From contig CAYLWL010000001.1 of assembly GCA_964387675.1 (NCBI GenBank), positions 74,819 through 138,818 of the forward strand: a stretch of 64,000 nucleotides of DNA, in the 5' to 3' direction. The notes beneath the pieces were generated by a model, which worked only from the letters and a program-made list of their open reading frames with translations, had not been told where the DNA came from and made no database searches. The translations under genes were made by a program, and so were the position numbers. This document shows, one piece after another, positions 12,926 through 37,162 of the stretch (the first letter of the stretch is position 1; every line of letters begins with the position of its first letter). The stretch is from an uncultured Candidatus Saccharibacteria bacterium. Lineage in GTDB: Bacteria; Patescibacteriota; Minisyncoccia; UBA6257; 2-01-FULL-56-20.

Positions 12926-12968
12926 TAAAATACTAGATTCTAGATTCTAGATTCTATATTCTTAATAT

Positions 12969-13556: not shown

Positions 13557-13595
13557 GTCGTATTCTACTTTCTACATTCTACTTTCTACATTCTC

Positions 13596-19434: not shown

Positions 19435-19553
19435 CCCGTTAGAAATAGGACGCGGACGCAACCGTCCACCCCAATTTTAGTTTTTTTACGTGAATTATTG
19501 CCATTTCGAAGTAAGACATCTGGTTTTTGGCGCGTCCGCGATTTCTAACGGGA
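19432..19553. repeat. Family-2 hairpin element, copy B (arms CCCGTTAGAAAT ... ATTTCTAACGGG)
   Basis: The arms carry a compensatory AT-for-GC change relative to copies A and C, plus an extended stem 'CGCGGACGC/GCGTCCGCG'. One arm is fused to the dnaA ATG. Confidence 0.7.
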
Positions 19554-19719
19554 TCAATTTTTATTTTATGAAAGCGATAGATTCATTCTATTTTTTATCT
19601 GGACGAAGTCAAAGAGCGAGAATCGGCAACTTTGGGGATTACCTGTTAATAACTTTTTCAACCGAGACAAACCGGGTCTCGTTTGTACCCATCAACAGTA
19701 CCATGTTAGTATAGATGAT

Positions 19720-19854
19720 ATGTCGGTTACCTATCAACCGAAGAAAAAGAAGAGAAAAAGGGCGCACGGCTTCCTCGCGAGGCAAAGAAGGTCGTCGGGA
19801 CGCAATGTGCTCAAAAGAAGGCGCGCCAAAGGACGACGCCGGCTTACTGTCTAA
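19720..19854 (+). CDS. rpmH: 50S ribosomal protein L34
   Basis: 44-aa ORF '[44 protein letters not shown]'. It is absent from the ORF track because it is under 60 aa. Classic position between dnaA and rnpA. Confidence 0.8.
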
Positions 19855-19925
19855 TTTGTGGCTTTTAGGTTATAGGTTTTAGGATATGAAAACTGACACC
19901 TCATAGCTGAAACCGAGCACCTCGT

Positions 19926-20252
19926 TTGATGTTTCCCAGGAAATACAGACTTCCTATGCGCGAGAAGGTCGCCCTCCGAGAAACTTTCAGGACCCCGTAC
20001 TTTTTACTCAAAACGTCCTCCAGCGAAAGCGGACACAATAGATTCGGCATTATCGTTTCAAACGCGGCGGTAAAGAAATCCGTCCGCCGTCACCTTTGGA
20101 AAAGAAGGTTCGCCCATCATATCCGCCTATGGCCGAACATCAGGAAAGACATTTTGGTAATCGTTTCTCCGAACATAGAAAATGTATCCACGAAGGACTT
20201 AAAGAAAGAATTGGACAAGATGCTACAAAAGTTATTAATTACTAATTTCTAA
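19926..20252 (+). CDS. rnpA: ribonuclease P protein component
   Basis: Basic 108-aa protein directly after rpmH with an RnpA-like 'RLRK...F' pattern. Confidence 0.7.
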   Translation: MMFPRKYRLPMREKVALRETFRTPYFLLKTSSSESGHNRFGIIVSNAAVKKSVRRHLWKRRFAHHIRLWPNIRKDILVIVSPNIENVSTKDLKKELDKMLQKLLITNF

Positions 20253-20297
20253 ACAATACACAAACCCCAAACCCCGAATTTTAGAAATTTTAACACC

Positions 20298-21035
20298 ATG
20301 TTGTATCTCTACGACACGCTTCTCTATAATCCCCTTCTCAACGTCCTGATTTTCTTTTATAACACGATCGCGTTTGGAGATTTCGGTTTGGCGATAATAT
20401 TTTTCACAATTTTCGTGAGAATTATCCTCTTCCCGCTTTTCCAAAAGAGCGCCAGACATCAGATTGTGATGCAGCGGCTTCAGCCGGAATTGAAAAAAAT
20501 ACAAGAGAAGCATCGGAACAATCGTGAACACCAGGGCATAGAAATGATGGCGCTCTACAAAGAGAAGGGCATCAATCCGTTTTCCGGTTTTCTGTTTTTA
20601 CTGGTGCAGCTGCCGATTTTGATCGCGCTCTACCAAATTTTTTTAAACAGCCAAAGCAAAGATTTTTTGTCGGGACTGTACGGTTTTATGTTCCGCCCGG
20701 ACCACATCAACACATCGTTCGTGGGCTTGATTAATTTGGGGGGACAAAGTATTCTGATGGTGGGCCTTGCGGCTTTAGCCCAGTATTTCCAAGGGATTTT
20801 GACCCTCCCGAAGGCGGAAAAACACCGCGAGCCGACGCCGGCGGAGAAAATAAACCGCCAGATGATCATCGTGGCTCCGTTCATTACCCTTCTTATTTTT
20901 TACAATCTGCCGGCGGCCGTGAGTTTGTACTGGCTTATCGCGACCATTTTCTCCGCCGCTCAGCAGTTTATGATCAACAAACAAAACAAACGCGAACATG
21001 GACAACCCGGAATCATTCGTCAAAAAAATAATTGA
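20298..21035 (+). CDS. yidC: membrane protein insertase YidC (short form)
   Basis: Five-TM Oxa1/YidC core with 'FPLF..S' motifs. Confidence 0.8.
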   Translation: MLYLYDTLLYNPLLNVLIFFYNTIAFGDFGLAIIFFTIFVRIILFPLFQKSARHQIVMQRLQPELKKIQEKHRNNREHQGIEMMALYKEKGINPFSGFLFLLVQLPILIALYQIFLNSQSKDFLSGLYGFMFRPDHINTSFVGLINLGGQSILMVGLAALAQYFQGILTLPKAEKHREPTPAEKINRQMIIVAPFITLLIFYNLPAAVSLYWLIATIFSAAQQFMINKQNKREHGQPGIIRQKNN

Positions 21036-21441
21036 ATATATGGGCTTCAAGGATTATCGCCTGGAAATTAAACCGGAGCAGAAGAGAGGAGCAGTTTTTA
21101 TTTATGACAACCCGACTTTGGTGAAAGAAAATTTGCCGACTCTTGTGGACAGCTTGAATCACGTCGTGCAAATGGCGGTGAGAAAAAACGGCGAACAGGC
21201 GATTCTTTTCGACATCAATAATTACCGGCAAGAAAGAGAAAGCTTAATTACCGAACTCGCGAGGGCGGCGGCGAAAAAGGTCTTAATGACCAAAGAGAAA
21301 ATTTCTCTCCCGGCGATGAACTCTTACGAAAGAAGGTTGGTCCACATCGAGCTTTCGGTGCACCCGGAAGTTACGACCGAAAGCGCGGGAATGGGCAGGG
21401 AGAGATGCGTGATCATAAGGCCAATCGAGAGTAATCGCTAA
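20998..21441 (+). CDS. jag: Jag/SpoIIIJ-associated KH-R3H RNA-binding protein
   Basis: R3H motif 'SYERRLVHIELS'. Follows yidC as in rpmH-rnpA-yidC-jag clusters. Its stop lies inside a family-1 element. Confidence 0.7.
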   Translation: MDNPESFVKKIIEYMGFKDYRLEIKPEQKRGAVFIYDNPTLVKENLPTLVDSLNHVVQMAVRKNGEQAILFDINNYRQERESLITELARAAAKKVLMTKEKISLPAMNSYERRLVHIELSVHPEVTTESAGMGRERCVIIRPIESNR

Positions 21442-21518
21442 TCACGCGAATGGCGGCAAATAACGCTAATATGATTCGCGTTATTACCTAGCGATTAGCG
21501 TTATTCGTGATTACTCCC
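21429..21518. repeat. Family-1 palindromic MITE-like element, copy 3
   Basis: TIRs 'GAGTAATCGC...GTGATTACTCCC'. Supplies the TAA stop codons of both convergent genes (jag and 21501..22739). Confidence 0.7.
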
Positions 21519-22739
21519 AAGCGACACAGCGTAGACCTTGCTGTCCAACCTATTGACAAAGAATAAGTTTTGGCCAAACACCTTCAGGTTTGAGGCGTCG
21601 AAAAGTTGGCTCTCGTCGTTGAAGATAGGCATTATATTTCCTTGAGAAAGATCAATTTTGTAGAGATCGTCGGCGGTGAAAAGCGCTTTCTTGGAATAGT
21701 CATCGGGCAAGCGGGCTTTCGAGAACGCGTTCGCATCGCGCGGTACGGCGCAGTAGAGAACATCCGAAGAACCGGAAGCATTCGGTGAACTTGAGCTCGC
21801 GGCATCCGAGGTTTGCGGCATGGTTTGTTCCCTTCCGAACGCACATTTACTTGGCAGGGTGGCAAGACGGAGCCGTTTCACGACATTGCCGAGGGCATCG
21901 ATCAAACTCAATATGCCGCCGTGCCCGCTTCGTGCCGCGGAAAAAACCAAGCCGACGTTGGTAGATGTCTCGTTCCAAAAGGATTGGAGTCCCAGACCCT
22001 CAGATACCAAAGTTAATTTGCCCGACGCAGTGTCATACATCCACATGGCGCCCGTCACGGCGGCGCTGCTTTTCTCGACAAGGAGAATGTGGCTTTGTCT
22101 TACCCAGTTCAAACTGACGTCTTGAACGCGAAGTTTCGCGAGCTCTTGCGGTTTTGTCGTGGTCTTTGAGACGTTAAGCACCAACAATGACTTGTAATCG
22201 GCGCCCTCTTTGAAATACGCTATCTGATGGCTCGTAGGAGACCAAACAGCGGATTCTGCGCCGAGCGGGAGCGGTTGCCAGGACTTGGAGGCCACGTCGA
22301 AGACGCTTGCTTGCGGCGCCGACGGGTCGCCGAAAGAGGCCAATACTTTTTTTCCGTCATAAGAAAACTCCGCGGAAATAAGCCCGGCGATAACCGACGA
22401 ACTCAAAACGACCGGTTCGCCTTTCGTGACTTTTACGACTTGGCCATCGGGCTGTACGATAATGACGTTGTTTTCTCGATCGACGAAGAAATCGGCCGCG
22501 GGGTTTTGGGCTACAAGACCGAATGTGCCGGAAGCGGATGGCAGACCGGCTTGTTGCGGAGTTTGGGAGCCGGTCGGGGAGGCGGGATTTTGTTGGATAT
22601 TCTGATTTTGGGCGCCGGGCAGGGTTCCGCTCGTTGTTCCCGACGGCGCCGCGCCGGGCCGGTAGCGCAAATAATATCCTACGAGAACCACAAGGACAAT
22701 CGCGGCGATGATGATGAATAAATAAAGGAAACGACTCAT
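21501..22739 (-). CDS. membrane-anchored hypothetical protein (N-terminal TM, Pro/Gln-rich linker, possible beta-propeller)
   Basis: 412 aa; the domain assignment is inferred and weak. First gene of the T4SS-like block. Confidence 0.4.
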   Translation of the reverse strand: MSRFLYLFIIIAAIVLVVLVGYYLRYRPGAAPSGTTSGTLPGAQNQNIQQNPASPTGSQTPQQAGLPSASGTFGLVAQNPAADFFVDRENNVIIVQPDGQVVKVTKGEPVVLSSSVIAGLISAEFSYDGKKVLASFGDPSAPQASVFDVASKSWQPLPLGAESAVWSPTSHQIAYFKEGADYKSLLVLNVSKTTTKPQELAKLRVQDVSLNWVRQSHILLVEKSSAAVTGAMWMYDTASGKLTLVSEGLGLQSFWNETSTNVGLVFSAARSGHGGILSLIDALGNVVKRLRLATLPSKCAFGREQTMPQTSDAASSSSPNASGSSDVLYCAVPRDANAFSKARLPDDYSKKALFTADDLYKIDLSQGNIMPIFNDESQLFDASNLKVFGQNLFFVNRLDSKVYAVSLGSNHE

Positions 22740-22743
22740 GATT

Positions 22744-23124
22744 TTATCTCGCTGCCGGCGCGCCGGAAACGGGCGCGAGCGCCGGGAGCGACAGTTTAGT
22801 GATATCGGGGTTTATAATATTCAGTATAAAATACGCCCCGAAAAGAAGCAGTAAGCCGAAAATTGCCCCCTTGATCCATTCTTTGCCCTCGGTTTGCCCG
22901 GAAGGGTTTCCGGCGGCAGTCATATATTTTACGCCGCCGAAGACCATCGCTCCGAGCGCCAAGACCCCTGAAATCATCAGGGCGAAGTTGTAGAGTTGCG
23001 CTATGAACTCCGTGGGTTTCGGCTCTGCCGACAAGCCGGGGATGCCGACGCTTATGGTAACCGCTTGGGCCGTACCGGTTAAAGCGAGAAGTAAGAAGTA
23101 GGGAATAAGAAGTAGGAGCTTCAT
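22744..23124 (-). CDS. VirB2/TrbC-like pilin
   Basis: Signal peptide plus two hydrophobic helices separated by a short loop ('...ALMISGVLALGAMVFGGVKYMTAAGNP...AIFGLLLLFGAYFILNI'). Confidence 0.55.
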   Translation of the reverse strand: MKLLLLIPYFLLLALTGTAQAVTISVGIPGLSAEPKPTEFIAQLYNFALMISGVLALGAMVFGGVKYMTAAGNPSGQTEGKEWIKGAIFGLLLLFGAYFILNIINPDITKLSLPALAPVSGAPAAR

Positions 23125-23134
23125 GGCGTAGTGG

Positions 23135-23860
23135 TTATTTTACAAAAATAAGGTTTACTCCGGCGTTCGCAACTTCGGTAATACTCCCCGGAATCCCGGC
23201 CGTGAAGTTTACGTTGACCGGAGAGCCGGAGGGAGCGTCCGAATTAAGAGTCACCGTCAAGGACTCCGGACTCTCGAGATTTTGCGAAGATTGCCCGTTT
23301 ACAGACCAAGAAAAATTTAGTTGAGACGACTTTCCCACGTTGAAGAAGAACGGCCATCCTTTGAATCCGATTGAAGTCGAAGAAAATCTGCCGCGAGGGA
23401 ACGGCGACTCGATGACCGCTTCGGGAACCACGACCGGAATCTCGATTGTTTTTAAGACGGGATTTGCTTGATCCGATCCGTACGATGGCAGTTCCACCCG
23501 GAGATCAATGGTGTTTTGCGCGACGCTTGGAGCGTTGAAACTGATTTTTCGCAGACCTACACCCCCCGCGGTAAATTCGCTGTTTACGTACCAATACACT
23601 TGTTGGCCGGAGAGGTCGACGCGAGTTCCGTTGTCAATAAGCTCAACCGAAGCCGTGATGGGAGAATTGGCCGTGGGGAGCGCTTTTCCCGTAAACCAAG
23701 AAGGAACGTACGTATTTGTTTTCCAGGTAATCATAAGCCGTGGCCCTTCGACGCGGCTCAGGACAAGCCCGGATTGTTGAGCTCGCGCCGGCGCGAGAAA
23801 AATAAACAGGGCGGCCGTCACGGTAAGCGTTGTGAGTATAACTTTTTTGCGGTGCTTCAT
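23135..23860 (-). CDS. secreted hypothetical protein (T4SS-like locus)
   Basis: Signal peptide, Ser/Asn-rich, no recognisable domain. Confidence 0.4.
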   Translation of the reverse strand: MKHRKKVILTTLTVTAALFIFLAPARAQQSGLVLSRVEGPRLMITWKTNTYVPSWFTGKALPTANSPITASVELIDNGTRVDLSGQQVYWYVNSEFTAGGVGLRKISFNAPSVAQNTIDLRVELPSYGSDQANPVLKTIEIPVVVPEAVIESPFPRGRFSSTSIGFKGWPFFFNVGKSSQLNFSWSVNGQSSQNLESPESLTVTLNSDAPSGSPVNVNFTAGIPGSITEVANAGVNLIFVK

Positions 23861-23891
23861 ACTTTCGGCAGACTTCCTACTCCTCTTATTA

Positions 23892-24644
23892 TTATATCAC
23901 TTCGGGAGATTTTTCTTCGCCTTCTTCCTCTTCTTCGCTTTCCGGCTTTTCTTCCTCCCGGGGCGTTTCTTCGAAAAGTTTTTGAAGCTTTTCAAGAGGC
24001 GTGAGCTCTTCGCCGAGGGCCTCTTTGGATACCTCAGGTTTCTTGGCTTCTTTTTCGGCTTCGGGGACTTCGGATGGCTTTCGTTCCGGTGCATATTCGG
24101 TCGGTTCCGTGATTTCTCGCGGGGCAGTTTCTACAGCGGTTTTCCCGGCAGTAGCCCCGGCTTCGGCGACTTCCGTTTCGGCTCTGGCCGCTCCGGCCTT
24201 GACCCCCGTTGCCGTTTTTTCTCCCGCGGTAATTTCTCCAGTCGCCGATTCCACGGACGCCGCTTCTTCGCCAAGGGCTTTTTCGGCTCCTCCAACCTTG
24301 CCGGTTGCGAGCGCCGCAACGGCGGCGGCCTTGGGATGATTGACAAGCCATATTCCCAAAAGAACACCAATCGTTCTTCCGGGGATTCCTACAAACGAAG
24401 CAATCCCTGATATTGTTTGCACAAGAGCCGGCCCGCCAAAGACCCCTAGTTTTATGACGTACCAGAACATAAGGAGTGCCCAGACAAATCCGTCAACAAG
24501 CCACGCGAAGCCGTACAGTATTTCACCGATAACGGGGATGGCGAGACCAATGTCGGCAATGATCGTAAGCGCGTCGTTCGCGAGCGCGATCATAATCATC
24601 AGGACTATTTCTACCGTATTAAATTTCTTTCCTCCCTCCTCCAT
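23892..24644 (-). CDS. polytopic membrane protein with acidic Glu-rich C-terminal tail
   Basis: Three or four TM helices followed by a Glu/Lys/Pro low-complexity tail. Confidence 0.4.
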   Translation of the reverse strand: MEEGGKKFNTVEIVLMIMIALANDALTIIADIGLAIPVIGEILYGFAWLVDGFVWALLMFWYVIKLGVFGGPALVQTISGIASFVGIPGRTIGVLLGIWLVNHPKAAAVAALATGKVGGAEKALGEEAASVESATGEITAGEKTATGVKAGAARAETEVAEAGATAGKTAVETAPREITEPTEYAPERKPSEVPEAEKEAKKPEVSKEALGEELTPLEKLQKLFEETPREEEKPESEEEEEGEEKSPEVI

Positions 24645-24662
24645 TTTTTATTTCCTCAAGCC

Positions 24663-26402
24663 TTACCCGCTCTCCTCGAGTAGTTGCTGGGGATTCGTGG
24701 TAATCACTTTATCCTCGAAAAAAGAAGATACGATCTGGATCGCCACGTGTTTCTTGCCCGCGAAAAAGAGTCCGGTTCCGACCTCCGACCCCAGGAGAAA
24801 GTTTTTTTCGGCGTTCGTGAGGTCGAACGCTTTCGCCACGACATCAATCGTCGCCGGCGCCTGTTTCAATAAGAGCTGGAGCGAGGAATTGGTGATAATG
24901 GGCCGGCCGTAGGGAGAGCGCAAGAAGTCCTCAACGTCCTGGGTGATGGTCGAAACGCCGAGATAATACTTTCTCGCTCTTTTCACGAGGCCGAACAGGA
25001 ACGTGGCGCTGTCTTCGTTTTTCATCATCCACCACGCCTCGTCGATGATCAAAAGACGCCGTTTGAGTTCGGCTCGAATCAGGTTCCAGATAAAGTTCAA
25101 AATCACAAACATCGCGATCGGCCGCAGTTCTTCTTCAAGGTCGCGGATCGAGAAAATGATCAATCGGTTCGTGATGTCGATATTCGTTCTTTGGTTCAAA
25201 AATCCCGAAAAGCTCCCTTTCGTGAATTTATAGAGCCGTTCGGCCATCGTCCTCCCTCCTTCGATACTTCGCAGCACGGTTTCCAGGTCTTCGAGGAGCG
25301 GCGGCTCGGCTTGCGAAAAATCCTGATCGGCTACGATTTCTCTCGAAGCGTACGTTTCCGTGATCGCCCTGTCGAGGAGCGCGTCTTCTTCGGCCGTGAC
25401 TTTGCCTAACATTAACTTCACCAAACTCGCGAGGTTTACGATGTGCGAGCGGAGGACGTCCGATGGCGATTCGTCTTTCGGCACGATGGGAATGTCGAAC
25501 GGATTGATGTGCTCGTGGGACGAGAGAGAAATGTTGAAAACGCTTCCGCCCAGGGCCTCCGCCAGCTTGCGGTATTCGTTTTCCGGATCGATGACGATTA
25601 CGTTTTCCACGCCGATCATGAGCGATCGCATGATTTCGAGTTTGGTGGCATAGGACTTTCCCGATCCCGATTTCGCGAAGACGACTTGATTCGCGTTTTC
25701 CAGAGAAAACCGGTTGAATATGACCAAACTGTTGTTGTGAAGGTTCACGCCATAGAGAATTCCTTCATTCGACGAAAGGTCTTCGGATACGAAAGGAAAA
25801 AGGGAAGATATAGGTTGTGAATTCATAGGATTCCACACTTGGAGCTGGTCGTCGCCCAAAGGAAGGATCGAGCAAAACCCCTCCAATTGTTCGAAAAGCG
25901 CCGGCCTCGCGTAAATCAACTTTGATTCCGTGATTGATGTTAGTTTTCCTTCGAGGCGGGATAACTCCTCTTCGCTATCCGCGTAAATCGTGATATACAC
26001 GCCGAGGTTGAACAGTTTTTCTTCCGATTGCTGGAGCGTGTCGCGCAGTGTCTCCACGTCGCGGAGCGCCGTCTCGAGCATGGGATCTCTTACGAGTCCT
26101 TTATCCTGATTTTCCATAATTTGGGATTCCAGCTGGGCGGACTTTTTGCGCAGGTTCTTGAGAGCGGTGCCGGTGTCCACGGGATTCACGAAAATCGATA
26201 CGTCGAAAAGGTTGGGCAGATTGATCAGCTGTTCGGCCCATCCCGTCGAGAGGTAGCGGGGGTACGAGAACAAAAAGAAACTCTTGGCGAGTTTATCGCC
26301 GATTTTGAGATGAGAGGGGAGTACTTGGATTCCTGACGGAGCGATAATTTTTACTATCCCTTCGAAGCCGTTTTCTTTTTTTTCTTTTTCCTGCTCGGCC
26401 AT
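24663..26402 (-). CDS. VirB4/TrbE/CagE-family conjugative ATPase, C-terminal ATPase part
   Basis: Walker A 'KSGSGKS' and Walker B 'LLIIDEAWWMM'. Confidence 0.65.
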   Translation of the reverse strand: MAEQEKEKKENGFEGIVKIIAPSGIQVLPSHLKIGDKLAKSFFLFSYPRYLSTGWAEQLINLPNLFDVSIFVNPVDTGTALKNLRKKSAQLESQIMENQDKGLVRDPMLETALRDVETLRDTLQQSEEKLFNLGVYITIYADSEEELSRLEGKLTSITESKLIYARPALFEQLEGFCSILPLGDDQLQVWNPMNSQPISSLFPFVSEDLSSNEGILYGVNLHNNSLVIFNRFSLENANQVVFAKSGSGKSYATKLEIMRSLMIGVENVIVIDPENEYRKLAEALGGSVFNISLSSHEHINPFDIPIVPKDESPSDVLRSHIVNLASLVKLMLGKVTAEEDALLDRAITETYASREIVADQDFSQAEPPLLEDLETVLRSIEGGRTMAERLYKFTKGSFSGFLNQRTNIDITNRLIIFSIRDLEEELRPIAMFVILNFIWNLIRAELKRRLLIIDEAWWMMKNEDSATFLFGLVKRARKYYLGVSTITQDVEDFLRSPYGRPIITNSSLQLLLKQAPATIDVVAKAFDLTNAEKNFLLGSEVGTGLFFAGKKHVAIQIVSSFFEDKVITTNPQQLLEESG

Positions 26403-26413
26403 TTTAATTTTTT

Positions 26414-26443
26414 AGCTTTTAGCTTTTAGGTGTTAGCTTTTAG
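26414..26443. repeat. AGCTTTTAG iteron-like 30-bp repeat R1
   Basis: 'AGCTTTTAGCTTTTAGGTGTTAGCTTTTAG'. Near-identical copy at 27121-27150 and an inverted copy at 27584-27613. Confidence 0.7.
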
Positions 26444-26451
26444 CACTAAAA

Positions 26452-27114
26452 CTAGCGTTCCGGCAAAACAACTTTTTCTTTTTCGACCGTTCCCGGGTTG
26501 TAAAAGTTATAAAAAAGCTCGATCAGCTGTTCGTCGTTCAAGACGGTCGCTTCGAGGCCGATGACCAGAAGATTCTCCATCACCTGCCGCACCCGCTGTT
26601 TCAACTGCTCCAGGTTTTCTTCGAACGTGGCTTGCGTTTCTTTCTTCGCGCGCTCTTCCGCCGCCTTATTCTTTTTCTTCAAAAAAGGCAGGAGGCCTTC
26701 TATGCCGGTCGCGCTCGCGAGGACATTCGGAAAGAAAGGCACCACCAAAAAAAAGGATTTTTCCATAATGGGATTCTTCTCGATGAAGCCGGAAACGAAT
26801 TCGCGGTACTCTTCGGCCTGGTTCTGCAAAATAGGAGAGGTTTCTCTTTGCTGGAATTCTCGGAGCCCTTCCAGGTATTTGTCGATGTTGATCTTCCTCG
26901 AGTGGATGAGTATTTGCAGGGGGAAATCCAAGCTATTCAGAAGGTTCTGATACGCTTGCAGAACAATGTTTTGCTCCGTTTCCGATTTGAGGGCGAAATT
27001 AATGCCGCCCACCATGACTACTTGGCGCAAACTGCCATTTTTGAGGATAACCGTGCTGTCTTTGATATCCTTGATGGCGACGAGATCTTGGCTGTTGGCA
27101 AATTCTTTGGGCAT
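26452..27114 (-). CDS. VirB4-family N-terminal domain protein (split VirB4)
   Basis: N-terminus '...LVAIKDIKDSTVILKNGSLRQVVMVGGINFALKSETEQ...' resembles the VirB4/PrgJ N-terminal domain. The 49-bp gap to the C-terminal part contains repeat R1. Confidence 0.5.
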   Translation of the reverse strand: MPKEFANSQDLVAIKDIKDSTVILKNGSLRQVVMVGGINFALKSETEQNIVLQAYQNLLNSLDFPLQILIHSRKINIDKYLEGLREFQQRETSPILQNQAEEYREFVSGFIEKNPIMEKSFFLVVPFFPNVLASATGIEGLLPFLKKKNKAAEERAKKETQATFEENLEQLKQRVRQVMENLLVIGLEATVLNDEQLIELFYNFYNPGTVEKEKVVLPER

Positions 27115-27120
27115 GTAAAT

Positions 27121-27150
27121 AGCTTTTAGCTTTTAGGTGTGAGCTTTTAG
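27121..27150. repeat. AGCTTTTAG iteron-like repeat R2
   Basis: 'AGCTTTTAGCTTTTAGGTGTGAGCTTTTAG'. Confidence 0.7.
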
Positions 27151-27159
27151 TCCTTATAA

Positions 27160-27531
27160 TTATAACCCACCTTTAAGCTTCGTGCTTAGTTTTGTTATCA
27201 TGACGCTAAGCATTTTTTGAACTTCCTCTAAAAGAGAAACAACAGAGACGAAATCTAGGGTTGGATATAGTTTTTGAGAAATAATTACTTGGGTTTCCAA
27301 TTCCGCCGAAGACGCGTCTGCGATTCTTAGGAATTGTAAGTATTCCGGAAGGTCTTTTCTTCTCGATCCTTCGGCTATGTTTGACGGAATTGAAATTGCC
27401 GATCGTCTCATTTGAGAAATAAGGCCATATAATTCTTCTCGGGGGAATTGTTTGGTTAATTCGTATATTTTTTCAACCAAGCCAATCGATTTTTTCCAGA
27501 CTTCTAGGTCTTTGTACGATTTTATATACAT
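27160..27531 (-). CDS. four-helix-bundle protein (23S rRNA intervening-sequence / Avd-like family)
   Basis: '...KQFPREELYGLISQMRRSAISIPSNIAEGSRR...' matches the TIGR02436/PF05635 pattern. The gene is bracketed by R2 and the inverted R3. Confidence 0.65.
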   Translation of the reverse strand: MYIKSYKDLEVWKKSIGLVEKIYELTKQFPREELYGLISQMRRSAISIPSNIAEGSRRKDLPEYLQFLRIADASSAELETQVIISQKLYPTLDFVSVVSLLEEVQKMLSVMITKLSTKLKGGL

Positions 27532-27583
27532 TAAAAGCAGCTTTCAGCTGTTAGATGTTAGCTTTTAGTTTTTGTAATCGTAC

Positions 27584-27613
27584 CTAAAAGCTAAAAGCTA
27601 AAACCTAAAAGCT
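27584..27613. repeat. AGCTTTTAG iteron-like repeat R3 (inverted)
   Basis: Reverse complement is 'AGCTTTTAGGTTTTAGCTTTTAGCTTTTAG'. A partial direct copy lies at 27548-27573. Confidence 0.7.
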
Positions 27614-27614
27614 T

Positions 27615-28109
27615 TTATCGGTAGTCCACTCTCCGAGCCGCCTGCCGCTCCCCCGTCATTTTTTGGAATATCTGAAATCGCTGCCGTTGGGGTTTTTCTA
27701 TAAACTGCTCGCCGGATATCTTTGTTCCGGTTTGGAGTTTGGCCCACGCGTTGCGAAGCGCAAGTCCGGAGACCACGGATTCGAGAGACACCCCGCCGTT
27801 TTTCGCCTCTTCCGGTTTTTGCGCAGGCGCCGTTTCGGGCCGCCACACGTACGTCTGCGGTTGCCAATAGAACCTGATTGCCGAGAGGGCGGCGTGGCTC
27901 AGCGGCCTTCCTCCCACCTTCACGAGCGCGAGGGCGACCGCCGCGCCAAGAATAAAAACGGAGAGTAGCGCCCAGAGCCAGGGTTGAACCGTAAAATACA
28001 AAAGAAAACTGAACGCGCCGCCCGTTGCGACGTAAATAAACTGACGCATCGTGAACGGCCCGACGATTTTGTCTTCGGCCTCGATAAATTGTGGAACTTG
28101 GAATTGCAT
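27615..28109 (-). CDS. PrgI/VirB3-like small membrane protein
   Basis: 'MQFQVPQFIEAEDKIVGPFTMRQFIYV' then two TM helices, matching PrgI-family N-terminus. Sits upstream of VirB4 as in Gram-positive-type T4SS. The overlapping ORF 27598..28140 is rejected. Confidence 0.5.
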   Translation of the reverse strand: MQFQVPQFIEAEDKIVGPFTMRQFIYVATGGAFSFLLYFTVQPWLWALLSVFILGAAVALALVKVGGRPLSHAALSAIRFYWQPQTYVWRPETAPAQKPEEAKNGGVSLESVVSGLALRNAWAKLQTGTKISGEQFIEKPQRQRFQIFQKMTGERQAARRVDYR

Positions 28110-28164
28110 TTATGAGATACCAATATACGAATGCATACAAGTGATACTAATAATACTAATCGTA

Positions 28165-28563
28165 TTAATGCCCTTTTCCGACTCTTTTTACCGAGTGGAG
28201 GCGAAACCAAGCAGATATTGATTCTAGATCAAGTTTTTTGTGCACCACTTCAAGCGCGAAACTTTCTACTTTTCCCTCCTCCGCCTCAAACGTGTAACCA
28301 TTGTCATCAAGAAACACTATTGCCGCTGTTATGCCAGTCCTTTTATTTCCGTCAAAAAATGGATGACCCAGAATGATATTGCGCGCATAAACAGCCGCTT
28401 TTTCGAAAATAGTAGGGTATAATTCCGTGCCAAATGCTTTCTGCCCGGGAAGAAACTCCAGACTTAGAATTGTGTTTGTATCTCGTACGCCGTGCAGGCC
28501 GCCGGTTTCGTCAAGAACAAGTGAGTGAATCTGAAGAATATCTTTCGCAGATAAATATTCCAC
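28165..28563 (-). CDS. doc: Doc (death-on-curing) Fic-family toxin
   Basis: Fic motif 'HPFFDGNKRTG'. Confidence 0.8.
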   Translation of the reverse strand: MEYLSAKDILQIHSLVLDETGGLHGVRDTNTILSLEFLPGQKAFGTELYPTIFEKAAVYARNIILGHPFFDGNKRTGITAAIVFLDDNGYTFEAEEGKVESFALEVVHKKLDLESISAWFRLHSVKRVGKGH

Positions 28564-28565
28564 GG

Positions 28566-28805
28566 CTATTTTTTCGCGAGCGCTTGGAGATCTTTCCGAT
28601 ATCGATCAACGAAATTGAGCGTGAGGTATGCAATCCTTTCCTGGCGTTCTGCTATTTTATTGGATGGTCGAACGGAAAAAACACGCCGTTTTCGGTTAAC
28701 TTCTACTATTACCGAATCTCCGATATTAAGGCCGAGTTCTGCCAATGACTTTTTCGAGATGGTGACCGCGGCGGAAGAGCCGACCTTGAGGACTTTTTGA
28801 GTCAT
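28566..28805 (-). CDS. AbrB/MazE-fold antitoxin (Phd-like partner of Doc)
   Basis: 'LKVGSSAAVTISKKSLAELGLNIGDSV' SpoVT/AbrB swapped-hairpin motif. Ends 3 nt upstream of doc. Confidence 0.7.
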   Translation of the reverse strand: MTQKVLKVGSSAAVTISKKSLAELGLNIGDSVIVEVNRKRRVFSVRPSNKIAERQERIAYLTLNFVDRYRKDLQALAKK

Positions 28806-28853
28806 ATTCTTGATTATAATACTATTATAATACGTGGCCGTGTGTCAACCTCA

Positions 28854-30035
28854 TCAAGGTTGTACTGGCGGCGTTGGCGGTTTCGGGGGAAGTGGCGGTT
28901 TTGGTAGTATAGGTGGTTTAATCTCGCTGATTATCGGCGAGAGTGTTTTATGCTCATCAAGACCTCGAATGGCAGGTGCCGCTGGTGGTTTCGGGATGGT
29001 CGGAGACGTAAGCGGTTTCGGAACCGGAGGCAGAGAGGATGGCGTTTTGACTTCGCTTGTTGGGAGCTTGTCTTGGGCGGTTTCGAGGGGCTTGTTCGCC
29101 TGGGGTGTGGCTGGTCTGATTGCGGCGAGCTGTTTGAGAATATCGGATCCGCCAAGGGACGGCTTCGACGACTCAATAGCCGTGATTTCTTTTATTTCGC
29201 GCCCTGGCTTGCCCTCTGTAGCCTTAGCGAAGGAGGGGGCCGCGCCGGAAGGTTTATCCTGAGCCGCGCCGAAGGGCGTTTTGGACTCCGTGTAGTGCAC
29301 CACCCGCACCTGCTCCTTGTTACTTGTCACTTGTTGCCTGTTACTCGTCGAGGGTCCGAATTCAAGCACGGCCGGTTTCGTTGCTTCGGTTTTAAGTTTT
29401 ATTTCCGACAGTTTCGGCTGTGGCATTTCCAGTCGGAATTCTTTTTTGAGAGGAGCGGAAACCGGTTCTTCGTGAAGAATCATCGGCGGCGGTGTGCCGG
29501 GGCTTGGGACCGCCGGTTTGCCGGGCGGTACCGGAGAAATTGACGGAGTTAGTGGAGCGGGGGGCTTCTCGGCGCGGTTTATCACAGGCGGCATCGAAGG
29601 GCTTGGCGCAAACGGTTCGGCGGTTTTCGCCGCCGGAAGAAGCGGCGGTTTTATTTCCGTGACTGGTTTTAGCGGTTCGGTTTTACTTATCATAACGGGA
29701 GCGAAGGCGGACGGCGGCTCGTATATTTTTTCCAAGTCAGCCAAGAGCGGCTTAAAAACTCTTTCGTTTACGGCGTTGGCGATGGATGTCGCGATTTGAA
29801 TGTCCAAGCCGAGCGCGTCTTTTAATTCTTGCGCGAAGTCTCCCGCGTGGATAAAGCCCAAGAGCACATAGCCGGCAATTGCCGCGACGCGATAAATCTT
29901 TTCTTTTGGTACGTGCTCCGCTTCGCAGGTTCGCCAGAGGAAATCAGAATGTACGTCGGAATAGAGAGCCTCCTTTAATTTACTTGGTAGCGTGTCCCAC
30001 CGCGCCAACGCTTGATCTGGAGAAATCGTTATCAT
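28854..30035 (-). CDS. Pro-rich hypothetical protein (structured N-terminal domain plus long P/S/T/K-rich disordered region)
   Basis: 393 aa. Contains an in-frame GTGACA-family repeat coding 'QVTSNKEQ'. Confidence 0.4.
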   Translation of the reverse strand: MITISPDQALARWDTLPSKLKEALYSDVHSDFLWRTCEAEHVPKEKIYRVAAIAGYVLLGFIHAGDFAQELKDALGLDIQIATSIANAVNERVFKPLLADLEKIYEPPSAFAPVMISKTEPLKPVTEIKPPLLPAAKTAEPFAPSPSMPPVINRAEKPPAPLTPSISPVPPGKPAVPSPGTPPPMILHEEPVSAPLKKEFRLEMPQPKLSEIKLKTEATKPAVLEFGPSTSNRQQVTSNKEQVRVVHYTESKTPFGAAQDKPSGAAPSFAKATEGKPGREIKEITAIESSKPSLGGSDILKQLAAIRPATPQANKPLETAQDKLPTSEVKTPSSLPPVPKPLTSPTIPKPPAAPAIRGLDEHKTLSPIISEIKPPILPKPPLPPKPPTPPVQP

Positions 30036-32269
30036 GGATTTGTGGTATTGGCTGGACCTGTAGCGCTCGGGGTTGTCGCGCCTCCTCCCGTAGATGAAAA
30101 TCCGAAAGCATTATTGGCGAAAGCTCTGTCGAAAGCGTCGGCGGCAAAGGCCATCCGATTAAGCCGTTCTTGTTGCTCCGTCGATCCCGGGGCGGTTGTG
30201 TTTTCTATATTGTCTAGTTCCTTGTCGATCTCTGCTTTATAAACTACGTTGAAATTTTTCAGTGTGGGCGATTTCATTTTATTGAGCATGTTCGGCACGA
30301 GCTGCTGGGCATACACCGCAAGTTGTTTTGCGAGAACTTGCGCCATTCTTTGTGAGGCGGTCGGAGAAAAGACCTCATTCATATTCATTTTAGCGACGTC
30401 ACTCTTGTTCAGTTTTTCTACGAATTCTTTTGTGGCTTTGTTGAGGGCGTCGAACGCTCTCACGGTTGCTCCGGTCGCGTCCCTTATTTCTGCGGTCATC
30501 GGATTTCTTCCCTCCCTCTCCGCTTTCGCCATCGCTCTTTCGGAGTCCCTCATCGTTTTATCGCCTCCAAACGCTTTGTTTATATCAGAAGATAGTTTTC
30601 CTTGCCCGTATGCGGTGAAATCTCGTTGGTGAGAATCTATCCAATCCTTAGCGGTTTGATTTCCGATCGTGTCGGTTTCTTTAAGTTCTTCGTCGCGAAC
30701 CTGCGCGGCAAGGTTGGCGAATATTGCTTCTTTTTTCATCGAACCGCGAAGGTTCTTTCTCCGTTCCTCCGGATTGTCGGGCACATTCTTCGCCGCTTGC
30801 CTGACATACTCTTCGTTGGTGCCAATTCCGGCAAGCATTCTGCCCGTAGCGGCCAAGGGACGCAATCTGCTCTCTCGCAAGCGATCAATAATACCTCTCT
30901 GCCCCTCGCCAAATTTTCTTTCCCCCGCAGCCCTTAGCGCCGCTCTTCCGCCAATCTTTCCCTGTTTGAACGCAAATCCTTGTATCGCTCCGCCGGCGGA
31001 TTTTGCGAGTCCCATCGTCACGCCCGCGCCAGCGACGGAAAGGGCATTGGCCGCGACTAATCCGCCCAAAGAAAGGCCGGTGAGCAGAATTATGTCACCT
31101 AATGACTGAATAAAGCCAAGATCTTGTCCAGACTGTTGCGCGAGAGAAATAGCTGGAGCGTTAACAGCTTCTTTCACGTGAGCCGCTACGTTTCCCGAGC
31201 GGCTCTGGGATACGGCGATGGCGAGGTATAGGAAAAATACGACGGTCGGCGCGAAGAATGTCCATCGTATGAAATTACTCCACCACTTGTCCCAATGAGA
31301 TTTAAACTTCGGAAAAATCCAAAGAAGCCAAACAAGGGGCATGATGATCAAAAGTATTCCGAGATAGATGTAGCGTATAAAGAGCATAACCGCAAGCGCC
31401 ATGAACGTAAGGGCAATAATTGCGTTGAATACGATTACAAATACTAATCCTAAGAGATTTTGAAAAAACTTATCTCCTTGATTTTTATCTACATTCGTAA
31501 AGTAATTCACAAGGGCAGTAGAGGCGGCTCCAATTGCGGCTGTGCCCGCGCAAACCCCCGCTACTCCAACCGGCCCCGCCGCGAGCCCCAACCACCATGT
31601 AGCCGCACATGTTCCTACGACGCTGGCGGTTGTGAGTTTGGACCCTATGGAGCTGGCGAGCGATGAGGGGGTGGTACTGCTTGATCTGGAAAGCAGTACT
31701 TGAGGCTTAAATCCTATGACTAACTGATTCACGAACGCTCCGTTCGCATCAGAACCCGAACCGGGGAATGGTTTCATAAAGAAAGTGGTTAGGCTGTCGG
31801 AGAATCCAACTATTGAGCCAGCAATGACCAGGCTGAAGTTTACGAAAATAGCGGCCACCACTAGTTTCCAGAGAATTTGTTTTACTCCATAGGTTTGGCT
31901 TCGGAGAATTGTTGCGATGGCTATTATAATAATCGCAAGGACAAAGCCAAGGTTAGCTAAGGCGAGCGTTACGCCGAAACCGGTCGTTACCGCCGTCGAG
32001 TTAATTAGACCAGGGGTAAGAGAAAGTGCGAATTGTGTCAGCCACGCTCCGAGCGATACAAACCAACTCGTAATAGTACCAGCCGCATAAGTTACGAAAT
32101 ACAAAGCGCAATAAACCAGAGAATTGCTACCGAAAACACAGCTTAAAAGAGAACCGCCGCTGTTATTTGAATTAGTTTGAGCTTGAGTGGGTGACGGCAT
32201 CGCGGCCGAAAGAAACAGAATCACGAGAATTCCCGACACCATTAACTTTTTTGTTTTCCAGTTGGTCAT
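30032..32269 (-). CDS. VirB6/TrbL-like polytopic membrane protein
   Basis: Signal/TM then at least 6 TM helices and a long charged C-terminal region. Start chosen at 'MTNWKTKKLMVSGILVILF' (28 nt after the upstream stop); the track ORF extends to 32413. Confidence 0.4.
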   Translation of the reverse strand: MTNWKTKKLMVSGILVILFLSAAMPSPTQAQTNSNNSGGSLLSCVFGSNSLVYCALYFVTYAAGTITSWFVSLGAWLTQFALSLTPGLINSTAVTTGFGVTLALANLGFVLAIIIIAIATILRSQTYGVKQILWKLVVAAIFVNFSLVIAGSIVGFSDSLTTFFMKPFPGSGSDANGAFVNQLVIGFKPQVLLSRSSSTTPSSLASSIGSKLTTASVVGTCAATWWLGLAAGPVGVAGVCAGTAAIGAASTALVNYFTNVDKNQGDKFFQNLLGLVFVIVFNAIIALTFMALAVMLFIRYIYLGILLIIMPLVWLLWIFPKFKSHWDKWWSNFIRWTFFAPTVVFFLYLAIAVSQSRSGNVAAHVKEAVNAPAISLAQQSGQDLGFIQSLGDIILLTGLSLGGLVAANALSVAGAGVTMGLAKSAGGAIQGFAFKQGKIGGRAALRAAGERKFGEGQRGIIDRLRESRLRPLAATGRMLAGIGTNEEYVRQAAKNVPDNPEERRKNLRGSMKKEAIFANLAAQVRDEELKETDTIGNQTAKDWIDSHQRDFTAYGQGKLSSDINKAFGGDKTMRDSERAMAKAEREGRNPMTAEIRDATGATVRAFDALNKATKEFVEKLNKSDVAKMNMNEVFSPTASQRMAQVLAKQLAVYAQQLVPNMLNKMKSPTLKNFNVVYKAEIDKELDNIENTTAPGSTEQQERLNRMAFAADAFDRAFANNAFGFSSTGGGATTPSATGPANTTNP

Positions 32270-32297
32270 TTGTATTATTGTTGCGACTGCGATTCTC

Positions 32298-34259
32298 TTA
32301 AGGGTTATTAATATTGTCCCTCGACCCCCCTGGATAATCGCCGCTGAAATCACCCGGAACTTCATCGAGTAAGTCCCCGGCGCCGGGGCCGCTCTCGCCC
32401 GGTGGCACTTCACTCGGATTCTGCGGGGTTACCTCTCCCGGCGGAGGCGGCTCATTGCCGCTCACTCTGTCCCTTGTATTGAGTTCGGCAAGTCCGCGCA
32501 CTCCCGCGAGGACCAGCCGGTTGAGGGTAGAGTTCACAAACGCGGAAACGAGTCCCACGACATCTTGAGCGTTTACGATGTTGTGGAGCGGGGCGCCGAT
32601 GGCGCCCGCAACGGCATCGCCGGCCACTTGTCCCGGCGTCGTGTCCTTATCTTCTTCACACGACGGCCTGTCGGACAAGCTGATACATCGGCTGAAGTCG
32701 TAGTTTGGCGATTCTCCTGTTTCCCTGGCGACAAGATCTGCGTTTTCCGTTACGGAATCGACACAGGACTGCCGCGGGCTCGGTCCGAATTTTACGCACA
32801 CCTTAGTCGCGAGGAACCCGCCGCTTGATTCGGCGCTACTTTTTGCGGCTTCTTTCTTCGCTAACCGCTCCGCTTCAATTTGTTGTGTTGTTTCGAACAA
32901 GCTTCCGAAATAGTTTCCGCTCGGGAGTATGAGAGCCCCATATCCCACCCAGCCGCCCTGGTTGAAGTCGTTGTAGAAGTTTTTCACGTTTTGCACCACC
33001 TGTTCGAGCATACATGTTTGAAGAGGATTGGATAAGTAGACGTTGCTTAGTTGAAGCTTGATGAGGGGTCCGAGCGACTGGCAAAGACCGGGAATTTTTG
33101 CCTGGATAGCGTTCGACACGGCGTCTTTTTCCGTTTGGCGGAGAAATCCCCGCCAGTTCGTGATAAACTGGGGCTTGCCTCCGCCCTGAATCCAATTGAC
33201 TGTCTGCTGCATGATCCGGTTGACGAGCTGATTTTTAAGGGTTTGGAGAATCACGCTCTCGATATGCTTCCTCACCCACTCCCACACCATACGCGCGACG
33301 GTTATGGCCGCATCGACGCCGAAAAAGGCATGGGCGGATTTTATTTCAAAGAGACCCGCGAGCGCGAGCAACGCGTTTTCGCTCGATGAAGAGTTTCCGC
33401 TGATTGACGCGGCCTTCTTCGCCTCGTTTTCAAGATTTCTGAAAATCGACGAAATGTTCTGCTCCGCATTTTGCAGGGCGAGCATCTGCGAAAGGGGGTC
33501 GTCCGAGTTTACGGCGCCGACGGCCTGTTTTTCATACGCCACGAGCATGAGAAAGTTTTTGTGGAAATTCACGAGCGGCGCGGGAACCGGCAGTTTTTTG
33601 AGAGCGATGTCCGCTTCGTCAAAAGTGACCGAGAGCGCGTTGATCGTCCCCGGAGAGGCATCCCCCCTTTGGAGAGTGTTCTGAACTTCCGAGCTGCCGA
33701 TTCCGCCGCTCACGATTTTGCCGAATGAATCCAAGTAATTTTGAATATCGTTCGAAGAATAATTGTTTATGATTTTTATATCGGCGTCGGCAACGTGAAC
33801 ATTCCAGCCGGTCGGCGCCGCGCCGGTTCCTTTGCCCGCAATGGCTTCTGCGATCGTCGCGTCAAGATCGGGCGAAGCGACCGACAGTTGCCCCGCCTCG
33901 TTTTGCGATGGCCCCCCGGGGTTTTGTTTTACGACGCTCCGCACAATGGTCGCCGCGAGACGGTCGGTGAGGTTTGCCGATGCGGAGATGGGCGGCAGAC
34001 CGTCATCTTGCGAGTTGGCAATATTCGCGTCGCCGATCGGATTGCCTCTCGGAATCGGCTCCACAAAGACGTTGTCGGGAACTTTGACCTTGCTATGAAC
34101 GGAGTCGAGGAGCACGGCATTTTTACCTTGTTGCCGATCTCCGGCAACCCTCGTATTGCCATTACTCAAAAATCCCGAGAACAAAAACACCGAAGAGCTT
34201 GTGATGGCGGAAAAAACGAGAAATCCCGTAATAAGTTTTTTTATGGTTATCTCGGACAT
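32298..34259 (-). CDS. large membrane-anchored secreted hypothetical protein (T4SS-like locus)
   Basis: Start at 'MSEITIKKLITGFLVFSAI' (TM). 650+ aa with a Gly/Pro-rich C-terminus and no known domain. Confidence 0.4.
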   Translation of the reverse strand: MSEITIKKLITGFLVFSAITSSSVFLFSGFLSNGNTRVAGDRQQGKNAVLLDSVHSKVKVPDNVFVEPIPRGNPIGDANIANSQDDGLPPISASANLTDRLAATIVRSVVKQNPGGPSQNEAGQLSVASPDLDATIAEAIAGKGTGAAPTGWNVHVADADIKIINNYSSNDIQNYLDSFGKIVSGGIGSSEVQNTLQRGDASPGTINALSVTFDEADIALKKLPVPAPLVNFHKNFLMLVAYEKQAVGAVNSDDPLSQMLALQNAEQNISSIFRNLENEAKKAASISGNSSSSENALLALAGLFEIKSAHAFFGVDAAITVARMVWEWVRKHIESVILQTLKNQLVNRIMQQTVNWIQGGGKPQFITNWRGFLRQTEKDAVSNAIQAKIPGLCQSLGPLIKLQLSNVYLSNPLQTCMLEQVVQNVKNFYNDFNQGGWVGYGALILPSGNYFGSLFETTQQIEAERLAKKEAAKSSAESSGGFLATKVCVKFGPSPRQSCVDSVTENADLVARETGESPNYDFSRCISLSDRPSCEEDKDTTPGQVAGDAVAGAIGAPLHNIVNAQDVVGLVSAFVNSTLNRLVLAGVRGLAELNTRDRVSGNEPPPPGEVTPQNPSEVPPGESGPGAGDLLDEVPGDFSGDYPGGSRDNINNP

Positions 34260-34344: not shown

Positions 34345-35196
34345 TCATGAGGCCATGGCGCGGGCTATCCGAACTATATCTTCTACGCTCAAGTTCTGTG
34401 GTCTGCTTTTGGGGTCTACGCCCATTTTTATTAGGGTTTCGGCGATGCTTTCTTTGCTTTCTGGCTTACCGGTGGTTTTGCGGCTTCGGTCTTGACACCT
34501 GATACTTGACACCTGACACATATTATTGAGAATCGTTTTCCTCGGCTGGGCAAAAAGAATTTTCACGGTTTTATAGTAAAGTTGCTCCCTGACGCCTGAC
34601 ACATGACACTTGACGCTTAGTTTGACGATCGCCGAATCGACTTCCGGCTGTGGGTCGAAATCTTTTCTTGGGATGAGGCCGATCAATTGCGGGTCTGCCC
34701 AAAATTGGACGATCGCGGCCAAACGATTCATTCGCGGGGGCGCGGCGCAAATTCTTTCCGCGACTTCTTTCTGGATAGTGAAGACGCACAACTCTGGCTT
34801 CGTTGACAATTCGCTCAATATTCTCAAAAGTTTTCCGGTAATGTAGTAGGGAATATTGCCGACAATCTTATATTCAGATTTAAGATTTATGAATTTTGAT
34901 TTAAGAATGCTTAAGGCGTCACCGTTTAGAATTTCTATATCTTTAATTCCTAAATCATAAATCCTACTTCTTAAATCATTCGCAAGCTTTGGATCTTTTT
35001 CAATCGCAATAACTTTTATCGGCGGCGAGCCGTTTTTTTCTAAAAGCTCACAGCTAAAACCTAAAAGCTCTTCAGTCAGCTCTCCGTGCCCCGGGCCGAT
35101 CTCGACGATGGTGTCGCCGGGTTTCAATTCCACGGCACCGACGATTTTTCGAATCGCCGATCTATTTTGCAAGAAATGTTGGCCCAGCCGCTTCAT
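34345..35196 (-). CDS. rsmA: 16S rRNA (adenine1518/1519-N6)-dimethyltransferase RsmA/KsgA
   Basis: 'LGQHFLQNRSAIRKIV...IVEIGPGHGELT'. The C-terminal region carries two in-frame TGACAC-repeat insertions coding Cys/Gln/Val/Ser-rich peptides. Confidence 0.8.
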   Translation of the reverse strand: MKRLGQHFLQNRSAIRKIVGAVELKPGDTIVEIGPGHGELTEELLGFSCELLEKNGSPPIKVIAIEKDPKLANDLRSRIYDLGIKDIEILNGDALSILKSKFINLKSEYKIVGNIPYYITGKLLRILSELSTKPELCVFTIQKEVAERICAAPPRMNRLAAIVQFWADPQLIGLIPRKDFDPQPEVDSAIVKLSVKCHVSGVREQLYYKTVKILFAQPRKTILNNMCQVSSIRCQDRSRKTTGKPESKESIAETLIKMGVDPKSRPQNLSVEDIVRIARAMAS

Positions 35197-37143: not shown

Positions 37144-37162
37144 GTGACAAGCAACAAGTAAC

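Follow-up and report, generated by a model that had tools for sequence, protein, structure and literature searches.

What is a small gene, bracketed by copies of a 30-bp repeat, doing in the middle of a secretion operon? The question is raised by a stretch of 64,000 nucleotides (hereafter the window) of contig CAYLWL010000001.1 from an uncultured Candidatus Saccharibacteria bacterium (assembly GCA_964387675.1), in which a gene for a four-helix-bundle (4HB) protein lies between prgI and virB4 in a type IV secretion system (T4SS)-like operon. A sequence-only reading had proposed that the repeats mark either a small cassette, the insertion of which may have split VirB4, or an array of iterons. 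The analysis presented here favours, with moderate confidence, the view that the inverted copies R3 and R2 are the terminal arms of a 4HB cassette resembling the open reading frame (ORF)-carrying intervening sequences (IVS) of rRNA, and that the stem formed by these arms would be processed or would regulate the operon mRNA. The features concerned are the following, in window coordinates.

27615-28109, minus strand: prgI-family gene, directly upstream of the cassette.
27584-27613, minus strand: R3, inverted copy of the 30-mer (27/30), the upstream (5') arm; AGCUUUU AGGUUUU AGCUUUU AGCUUUU AG in the transcript.
27569-27583, minus strand: loop between R3 and R4, 15 nt.
27539-27568, minus strand: R4, degenerate direct array (27/30) of the CUAAAAG type, in the same sense as R1 and R2.
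27160-27531, minus strand: 4HB gene, 123 aa, of the 23S rRNA IVS protein / TIGR02436 family.
27121-27150, minus strand: R2, exact match to the 30-mer, the downstream (3') arm; CUAAAAG CUCACAC CUAAAAG CUAAAAG CU.
26452-27114, minus strand: virB4N, the N-terminal piece of VirB4, 220 aa.
26403-26451: virB4N-virB4C spacer, 49 nt, which holds R1.
26414-26443, minus strand: R1, exact match to the 30-mer, an extra solo copy.
24663-26402, minus strand: virB4C, the C-terminal ATPase piece of VirB4, 579 aa.
35040-35069, minus strand: K, a fifth copy of the 30-mer (28/30), in frame in ksgA/rsmA and in the same sense as R3.

Counted over the 64-kb window, the 9-mer AGCTTTTAG occurs in 12 copies against 0.67 expected and the 30-mer, with three or fewer mismatches, in five copies against 0 expected, which bears out the repeats previously reported at 26414-26443, 27121-27150 and, inverted, 27584-27613. 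The partial copy that had been placed at 27548-27573 exists as well, but its best fit is at 27539-27568 (R4), and the copy at 35040-35069 had been missed. Tandem Repeats Finder and a repeat finder resolved the repeat as a tandem heptamer, AGCTTTT, with a period of 7 and 4.3-5 copies per array (4.3 units in R3). R1 and R2 agree at 29 of 30 positions and have an irregular third unit in common, which makes them copies of one another rather than products of independent slippage. All of the arrays are identical across 10 independent assemblies and are therefore not assembly artefacts; their unit number is constant, and no length polymorphism resembling phase variation was found among these 10 assemblies. 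As to stop codons, R3 has TAG and R1 has TAA in each of the three frames, R2 has stops in two frames, and an ATTCTAC array at 13562 has none. A scan of the window against Rfam recovered two tRNAs only, with no match at the repeats and no rRNA.

All of the genes of the locus are on the minus strand. In the transcript, the prgI stop codon is followed by 1 nt, R3, 15 nt, R4, 7 nt, the 4HB ORF, 9 nt, R2, 5-6 nt and virB4N, and then by 8 nt, R1, about 11 nt (7 nt by the array limits of Tandem Repeats Finder) and virB4C. The cassette (27121-27613, about 493 bp) occupies the entire prgI-virB4N spacer, has the orientation of the operon and carries the 4HB gene as its sole gene. Its G+C content is 33-40%, compared with about 50% in the flanks. 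Scans for consensus promoters and terminators returned nothing above shuffled sequences; with no promoter of its own detected, the cassette is presumed to be transcribed by read-through from the operon.

The encoded 4HB protein exceeds the thresholds of PF05635 (E = 4.5e-34, 117.3 bits, cut-off 33.8), TIGR02436 (111 bits, cut-off 24) and NF008911 (138.5 bits, cut-off 137). The link to rRNA intervening sequences drawn earlier from the sequence alone is upheld. The closest solved structure is that of the pentameric XCC0516 (2GSC, E = 2.3e-23), and no match was found in PADLOC. The protein was found on 10 contigs, all of which have it in one and the same context.

The layout of the cassette is not peculiar to this locus. 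The survey set comprised 80 metagenomic loci encoding 4HB relatives at 44-67% identity. A period-7 array lies within 100 nt upstream of 31 of 75 4HB genes but of only 9 of 146 control genes in the same loci, and within 100 nt downstream of 19/74 4HB genes against 11/158 controls; periods of 5, 6, 8, 9 and 10 are represented near 4HB genes by 0-4 cases only. Array density reaches 3.4 per kb in the 150-nt 4HB flanks, compared with 0.33 per kb elsewhere. The upstream and downstream flanks are complementary, at a score of at least 12, in 36 of 65 4HB loci, in 8 of 390 cross-locus pairs (p = 6e-22) and around 6 of 87 control genes, an approximately eightfold enrichment of the inverted arrangement around 4HB genes relative to controls. 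None of the 36 loci with such strong arms is located in rRNA. The arm sequences are locus-specific (AGGGACT, AGTGGTC, CGTTTTG, AGCTTGT and others), yet they are heptamer-periodic in 28 of 33 loci, and the 5' arm is the G+T-rich one on the sense strand in 29 of 34 (p = 4e-5). From the stop codon to the 3' arm the median distance is 9.5 nt, compared with 9 nt at the window locus. Neighbouring genes are co-oriented with the 4HB gene in 58 of 68 cases upstream and 52 of 64 downstream, at distances of about 50 nt, and most of the sampled 4HB loci are single genes within operons. Inverted heptamer arms are a general layout of 4HB loci outside rRNA. In one of the 36 strong-arm loci, L188 (1231-1850), the cassette and its inverted arms are flanked on both sides by co-oriented tRNA genes and so lie within a stable-RNA transcription unit other than rRNA. 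No description of non-rRNA 4HB genes with inverted arms built of heptamers was found in the literature searched, an absence that is not proof of novelty.

Related T4SS loci differ in the state of the prgI-virB4N spacer. In L133 the prgI-virB4N spacer is bare and unstructured, with neither a 4HB gene nor an AGCTTTT repeat. In L130 (5888-6003) the same spacer holds a hairpin without an ORF, roughly 40 bp long (-45.1 kcal/mol, z = -7.1) and made up of other short repeats such as GCGAATT, and the virB4N/virB4C junction contains (CTAAATT)x2.5. In L216 the cassette is present with the R3-loop-R4-ORF-R2 layout kept, and R3 is identical at 30 of 30 positions although prgI is only about 75% identical; for a further contig, P0006, the cassette state was assigned from the encoded 4HB protein, which is 89% identical. 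Since the spacer is bare, an ORF-less hairpin or a cassette among relatives, the cassette represents a presence/absence insertion. The earlier proposal of a small cassette, made up of R2, R3 and the 4HB gene and inserted in the T4SS operon, thus stands, both on the order prgI-virB4N-virB4C without the cassette in L130 and L133 and on the low G+C content. The spacer one position upstream, between a 393-aa gene and prgI, is variable as well: it contains a phd/doc pair in the window, none in L130 and L133, and in L216 a second, different 4HB gene (120-571, 104 aa) directly upstream of prgI, with arms (TGGCAAA)n and (TTTGCCA)n. The spacers around prgI appear to be hot spots for small insertions. 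The cassette itself has the looks of a selfish element.

The suggestion that the insertion had split VirB4 was not upheld. In the VirB4_CagE model, virB4N covers positions 18-192 and virB4C positions 264-724 (and 189-734 of the conju_CD1110 model). All homologues of virB4N among the matches listed, at least 120, are stand-alone proteins of 216-259 aa. In L130 (79% identity) and L133 (69%), prgI, virB4N and virB4C are separate ORFs, with virB4 spacers of 9 and 36 nt that contain no R1 counterpart and no AGCTTTT repeat. Because the two-gene form is found in relatives that lack the repeat, the insertion was not the cause of the split. The two-gene VirB4 is ancestral, unrelated to the cassette and found in hundreds of Patescibacteria, virB4N being a separate gene throughout that group.

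How could the arms act in the transcript? R3 and R2 are complementary over 33 nt at 85%, and in the minimum free energy fold of the 526-nt transcript R3 is paired to R2 around the 4HB ORF (-126.4 kcal/mol, z = -4.6). Locally, R3 and R4 form a hairpin (-27 kcal/mol, z = -4.4), while R1 and R2 are unstructured when folded alone. The duplex energies of R3 are -28.9 kcal/mol with R4, -29.7 with R2 and -34.2 with R1, compared with about -9 +/- 3 kcal/mol for shuffled partners (-8.4 for the R3-R2 shuffles). These energies are much alike, so that a single G+U-rich arm has three near-equivalent partners, each of which is a gene leader. K is complementary to R2 at 28 of 30 positions, with a duplex energy of -40.1 kcal/mol.

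In the proposed mechanism, the G+U-rich R3 could pair with the A+C-rich R4 before the 4HB gene, R2 before virB4N or R1 before virB4C. The thermodynamically best fold, with R3 paired to R2, gives a stem of about 25-30 bp around the ORF, as in ORF-carrying rRNA IVS. By analogy with the latter elements, from which processing of this type is inferred, the most likely outcome is that RNase III cleaves the R3/R2 duplex. Such cleavage would cut the operon mRNA between prgI and virB4N, releasing the 4HB segment, and would either sequester the leaders of genes further downstream or expose them. R1 and R4 are additional copies of the 3' arm in its own sense, and in behaviour they resemble the many other heptamer arrays, a class already known, that stand ahead of start codons in this genome, where Shine-Dalgarno sequences are scarce.

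Several observations weigh against this interpretation. Clear arms were found in only 55% of the 4HB loci. Mismatches between arms are of the G.U type in 34 cases and of the A.C type in 32; this wobble test revealed no excess of G.U, and therefore nothing favours the upkeep of a sense-RNA stem over complementarity at the DNA level. No compensatory change was seen between the window and L216, R3 being unchanged and the changes in R2 both adding and removing a pair. During transcription, R3 and R4 would already fold into their local hairpin before R2 is made, and an upstream hairpin of this type occurs in only one of 65 4HB loci and is not general; extra solo copies of an arm are likewise rare near other cassettes (2/31). 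The 64-kb window contains no rnc gene for RNase III. Finally, the presence/absence pattern could reflect either a gain in the lineage of the window or a loss in L130, which is the closest relative by VirB4N identity and has no ORF in the spacer.

A serious alternative, which we regard as possible though not probable, is an element acting at the level of DNA, in which the arms drive movement of the cassette, the ORF-less hairpins are landing pads, and their loop is exchanged for a cassette with matching arms by recombination at short homologies or by template switching, as might follow DNA uptake, the RNA structure being a by-product. In favour of this view are the balanced arm mismatches, the long ORF-less hairpin at the same spacer of L130 and the second 4HB cassette of L216, which has its own arms one spacer further upstream. 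The cassette also has no associated transposase or integrase that we could find, and identical impure 30-mers (AGCTTTTAGGTTTTAGCTGTTAGCTTTTAG and the R3 sequence) recur in distant phyla, mostly in ORF-less hairpins. Yet no near-identical cassette was encountered in two contexts, all 10 contigs with the protein representing a single one; the constant polarity of the arms and the co-orientation of the neighbours are easier to explain at the level of the transcript, and extra arm copies, as noted above, are scarce near cassettes.

It is unlikely, in our assessment, that the arrays before the genes are mRNA binding platforms for an RNA-binding protein (S1, Csp or CsrA-like) tuning the translation of virB4N, virB4C and the 4HB gene, with R3 as an anti-leader. 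Support for it lies in the placement of the arrays. Period-7 arrays with many different units (among them CTAGATT, ATTCTAC, TGACACC, CTTGTCA, ATTGGAA and CTAAAAG) account for roughly half of the tandem repeats of the window, and none comparable was found in shuffled sequence. Of the intergenic arrays, seven terminate 1-7 nt ahead of a start codon, the genes including yebC, ruvC, an O-antigen-ligase-like gene, virB4N, virB4C and the 4HB gene; four of them, besides R1, R2 and R4, end 1-6 nt before ATG. A Shine-Dalgarno-like 4-mer precedes only 8 of 58 genes, and isolated R1 and R2 lack structure. TAACTGA arrays show the same pattern before start codons in Beggiatoaceae, Cyanobacteria and Bacteroidetes, where an RNA-binding protein was proposed (PMC4679880, MacGregor 2015). 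A single sequence-specific binder is difficult to reconcile with the many different units within 64 kb (CTAGATT, TGACACC, ATTCTAC, CTAAAAG); moreover, the same junctions lack arrays in relatives, and the inverted pairs found at 4HB genes in particular are left unexplained. The period-7 arrays of the window include those at 4433-4469, 12933-12962, 13562-13594 and 61230-61293, the last of which resembles a two-array hairpin before an ATG at 61295.

Neutral products of replication slippage, for which heptamers are the preferred unit in many bacteria, with neither the arrays nor their inverted arrangement having a function, are an improbable explanation. It is true that heptanucleotides rank first in abundance among long simple-sequence repeats in the majority of genomes (Mrazek 2007, cited in PMC4679880), and a scan of one genome per species showed more than 120 stretches, spread over many phyla, to carry the AGCTTTT pattern, often beside other heptamer arrays and often as arm-loop-arm hairpins. 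The candidate rule that every (AGCTTTT)n array marks a 4HB gene was rejected: tblastn and a 4HB hidden Markov model located such a gene within 200 nt in only 2 of 120 array-bearing stretches, which makes heptamer arrays a more general phenomenon than the cassette. Nevertheless, slippage alone does not account for the irregular third unit common to R1 and R2 (29/30), for the invariant unit number in 10 assemblies, for an R3 more conserved than the neighbouring coding DNA, or for the eightfold enrichment of inverted pairs at 4HB genes.

As to the distribution of the 30-mer outside the window, the irregular AGCTTTTAGGTTTTAGCTGTTAGCTTTTAG was found in Selenomonadales, Peribacteria and Paceibacterota, and the exact R3 sequence in L090 and L123. 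The stretches with either sequence (L027, L047, L058, L106, L090 and L123) include unclassified metagenome-assembled genomes, and mostly have it as the 5' arm of ORF-less hairpins. These distant copies reflect either sequence convergence or a small element that has moved horizontally.

A speculation to which we give little credence joins 4HB genes with heptamer arrays as the two parts of a single widespread system. In it, the pentameric 4HB protein would read four to five heptamers in RNA or single-stranded DNA, one subunit per unit; the arrays would serve it as operators or landing pads, and solo arrays before start codons, or in frame in essential genes such as ksgA, would be its footprints or targets. 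Such a system, if real, would account both for the heptamer repeats of Cyanobacteria, Bacteroidota, Beggiatoaceae and Patescibacteria and for the function of the '23S IVS protein' family.

The earlier alternative of iterons, an origin, an origin of transfer (oriT) or a regulator-binding array, considered here as part of a conjugation-like system or of a nearby chromosomal origin, has become very improbable. In its favour are several direct copies of one unit within 1.2 kb in a T4SS-like operon about 2 kb from the dnaA region. The repeats have a period of 7 instead of the spaced 17-22 bp units of iterons, are placed between a stop codon and the next start, only a few nucleotides from the latter, are missing from the same operon in relatives and recur in the same architecture around 4HB genes in unrelated contexts; there is also no adjacent Rep or relaxase gene. 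Least of all can the locus be regarded as the remnant of a diversity-generating retroelement (DGR) with the 4HB protein as Avd, since against a weak bAvd match (PF22296, 27.4 bits, below the cut-off of 40) and the fact that no family is commoner than PF05635 near DGR reverse transcriptases (PMC10053308) stand the lack of any reverse transcriptase (RVT family) among the window ORFs, of a template/variable repeat pair and of any long near-identical repeat pair in the window, and the finding that most sampled 4HB loci are single genes inside operons; the sequence-only reading had likewise seen no support for a functional DGR.

In the order of transcription, the genes of the wider locus, on what the analysis identified as a Candidatus Liptonbacteria (Patescibacteria) chromosome, are ksgA, a 653-aa gene, a TrbL-like gene, the 393-aa gene, phd/doc, prgI, the 4HB gene, virB4N and virB4C, followed by more T4SS-like genes, including a T4SS pilin, and then by jag, yidC, rnpA and dnaA. 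The T4SS-like operon (18079-34259) begins immediately behind ksgA and stops about 2 kb short of the rnpA-dnaA region; its transcription runs towards the presumed origin and would be head-on with replication if the origin adjoins dnaA. The phd/doc-type toxin-antitoxin pair (28165-28805), between the 393-aa gene and prgI, consists of a MazE-like antitoxin of 79 aa and a Fic/Doc toxin of 132 aa. Elsewhere in the window, a plus-strand tRNA-Ile(UAU) gene is overlapped in its 3' part by a large serine recombinase ORF on the minus strand (53297-54893, 521 aa), and this overlap may be the edge of an integrated element.

Heptamer arrays are also present within coding sequences. In ksgA/rsmA (34345-35196, minus strand) copy K encodes ELLGFSCELL, and a second array, (GGTGTCA)n at 34493-34519, encodes CQVSSIRCQ; both in-frame segments are extra residues relative to KsgA of B. 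subtilis and fall at loop positions. Orthologues of ksgA with 51-56% identity (L218, 1501-2367; L219, 1501-2310) have AGCTTTT-type heptamers at the same codons, encoding ELLASSFELL and ELLAISFKLL. Roughly 170 nt further down their coding sequence lies a complementary array of the CTAAAAG type, and the two form an intragenic inverted repeat. The extra segment is present in about a third of 22 orthologues. A UvrD/PcrA-like helicase ORF (35287-37227, minus strand) contains at least five arrays, at 35596-35628, 36073-36103, 36885-36902, 37135-37178 and 37220-37239.

The 4HB or 23S rRNA IVS proteins are among the commonest uncharacterised small gene families in bacteria, and the origin and spread of intervening sequences have been an open question since the early 1990s. 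The copies outside rRNA keep the IVS architecture, with locus-specific heptamer arms, fixed polarity and sense orientation in operons or between tRNA genes. What was a curiosity of rRNA genes becomes a general type of cassette, for which RNA processing, mobility and recognition of the repeats by the protein are testable, and which is now tied to the heptamer repeats so abundant ahead of start codons. In the T4SS-like operon of Patescibacteria, the cassette marks the stretch between prgI and the two-part VirB4 as a likely point of processing or regulation, and the idea that the split of VirB4 is damage is corrected.

Among known systems, the Avd proteins of DGRs have a homologous four-helix-bundle fold and family (2GSC compared with 4DWL; PMC10053308), but the window locus lacks the reverse transcriptase and the template/variable repeats, and its protein is below the bAvd threshold. 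Repetitive extragenic palindromic (REP) sequences, bacterial interspersed mosaic elements (BIME) and repeats resembling miniature inverted-repeat transposable elements (MITE) are likewise short, dispersed inverted repeats between co-transcribed genes that can shape the stability of operon mRNA; the cassette differs from them in the heptamer-array arms, which vary between loci, and in the protein gene in its loop. The TAACTGA-type arrays, other long simple-sequence repeats and the cyanobacterial short tandemly repeated repetitive (STRR) sequences are, like the window arrays, tandem heptamers in 2-6 copies that lie between genes in forward sense and terminate a few nt ahead of a start codon, some of them with stop codons in several frames; Shine-Dalgarno sequences are rare, and occasional copies are in frame in coding sequences. 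The window arrays have other units, and many of them per genome, and form an inverted pair around one gene family, a link not made in those papers.

The closest relatives are the IVS of 23S rRNA in Leptospira, Coxiella burnetii and Brucella. In Coxiella, the IVS contains the S23p ORF, its termini form a 28-bp stem that RNase III cuts, and its 5' arm has (GACAGAT)x3-4 (PMC4990558). Common to these elements and the cassette are the PF05635/TIGR02436 protein, an ORF within terminal inverted repeats forming a stem of about 25-30 bp, a 5' arm of tandem heptamers (GACAGAT in Coxiella, AGCTTTT in the cassette), sense orientation in the host transcript and the existence of ORF-less versions. The rRNA elements sit in helix 9, 25 or 45 of 23S rRNA, whereas the cassette lies in a protein-coding operon, between prgI and virB4N, and has in addition the internal array R4 and the solo copy R1. 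Excision by RNase III has been demonstrated for the rRNA elements (PMC4990558) and would apply to the cassette by analogy only. Given its insertion outside 23S rRNA, the cassette is therefore best described as a variant of the S23p-type IVS, not as a member of that group.

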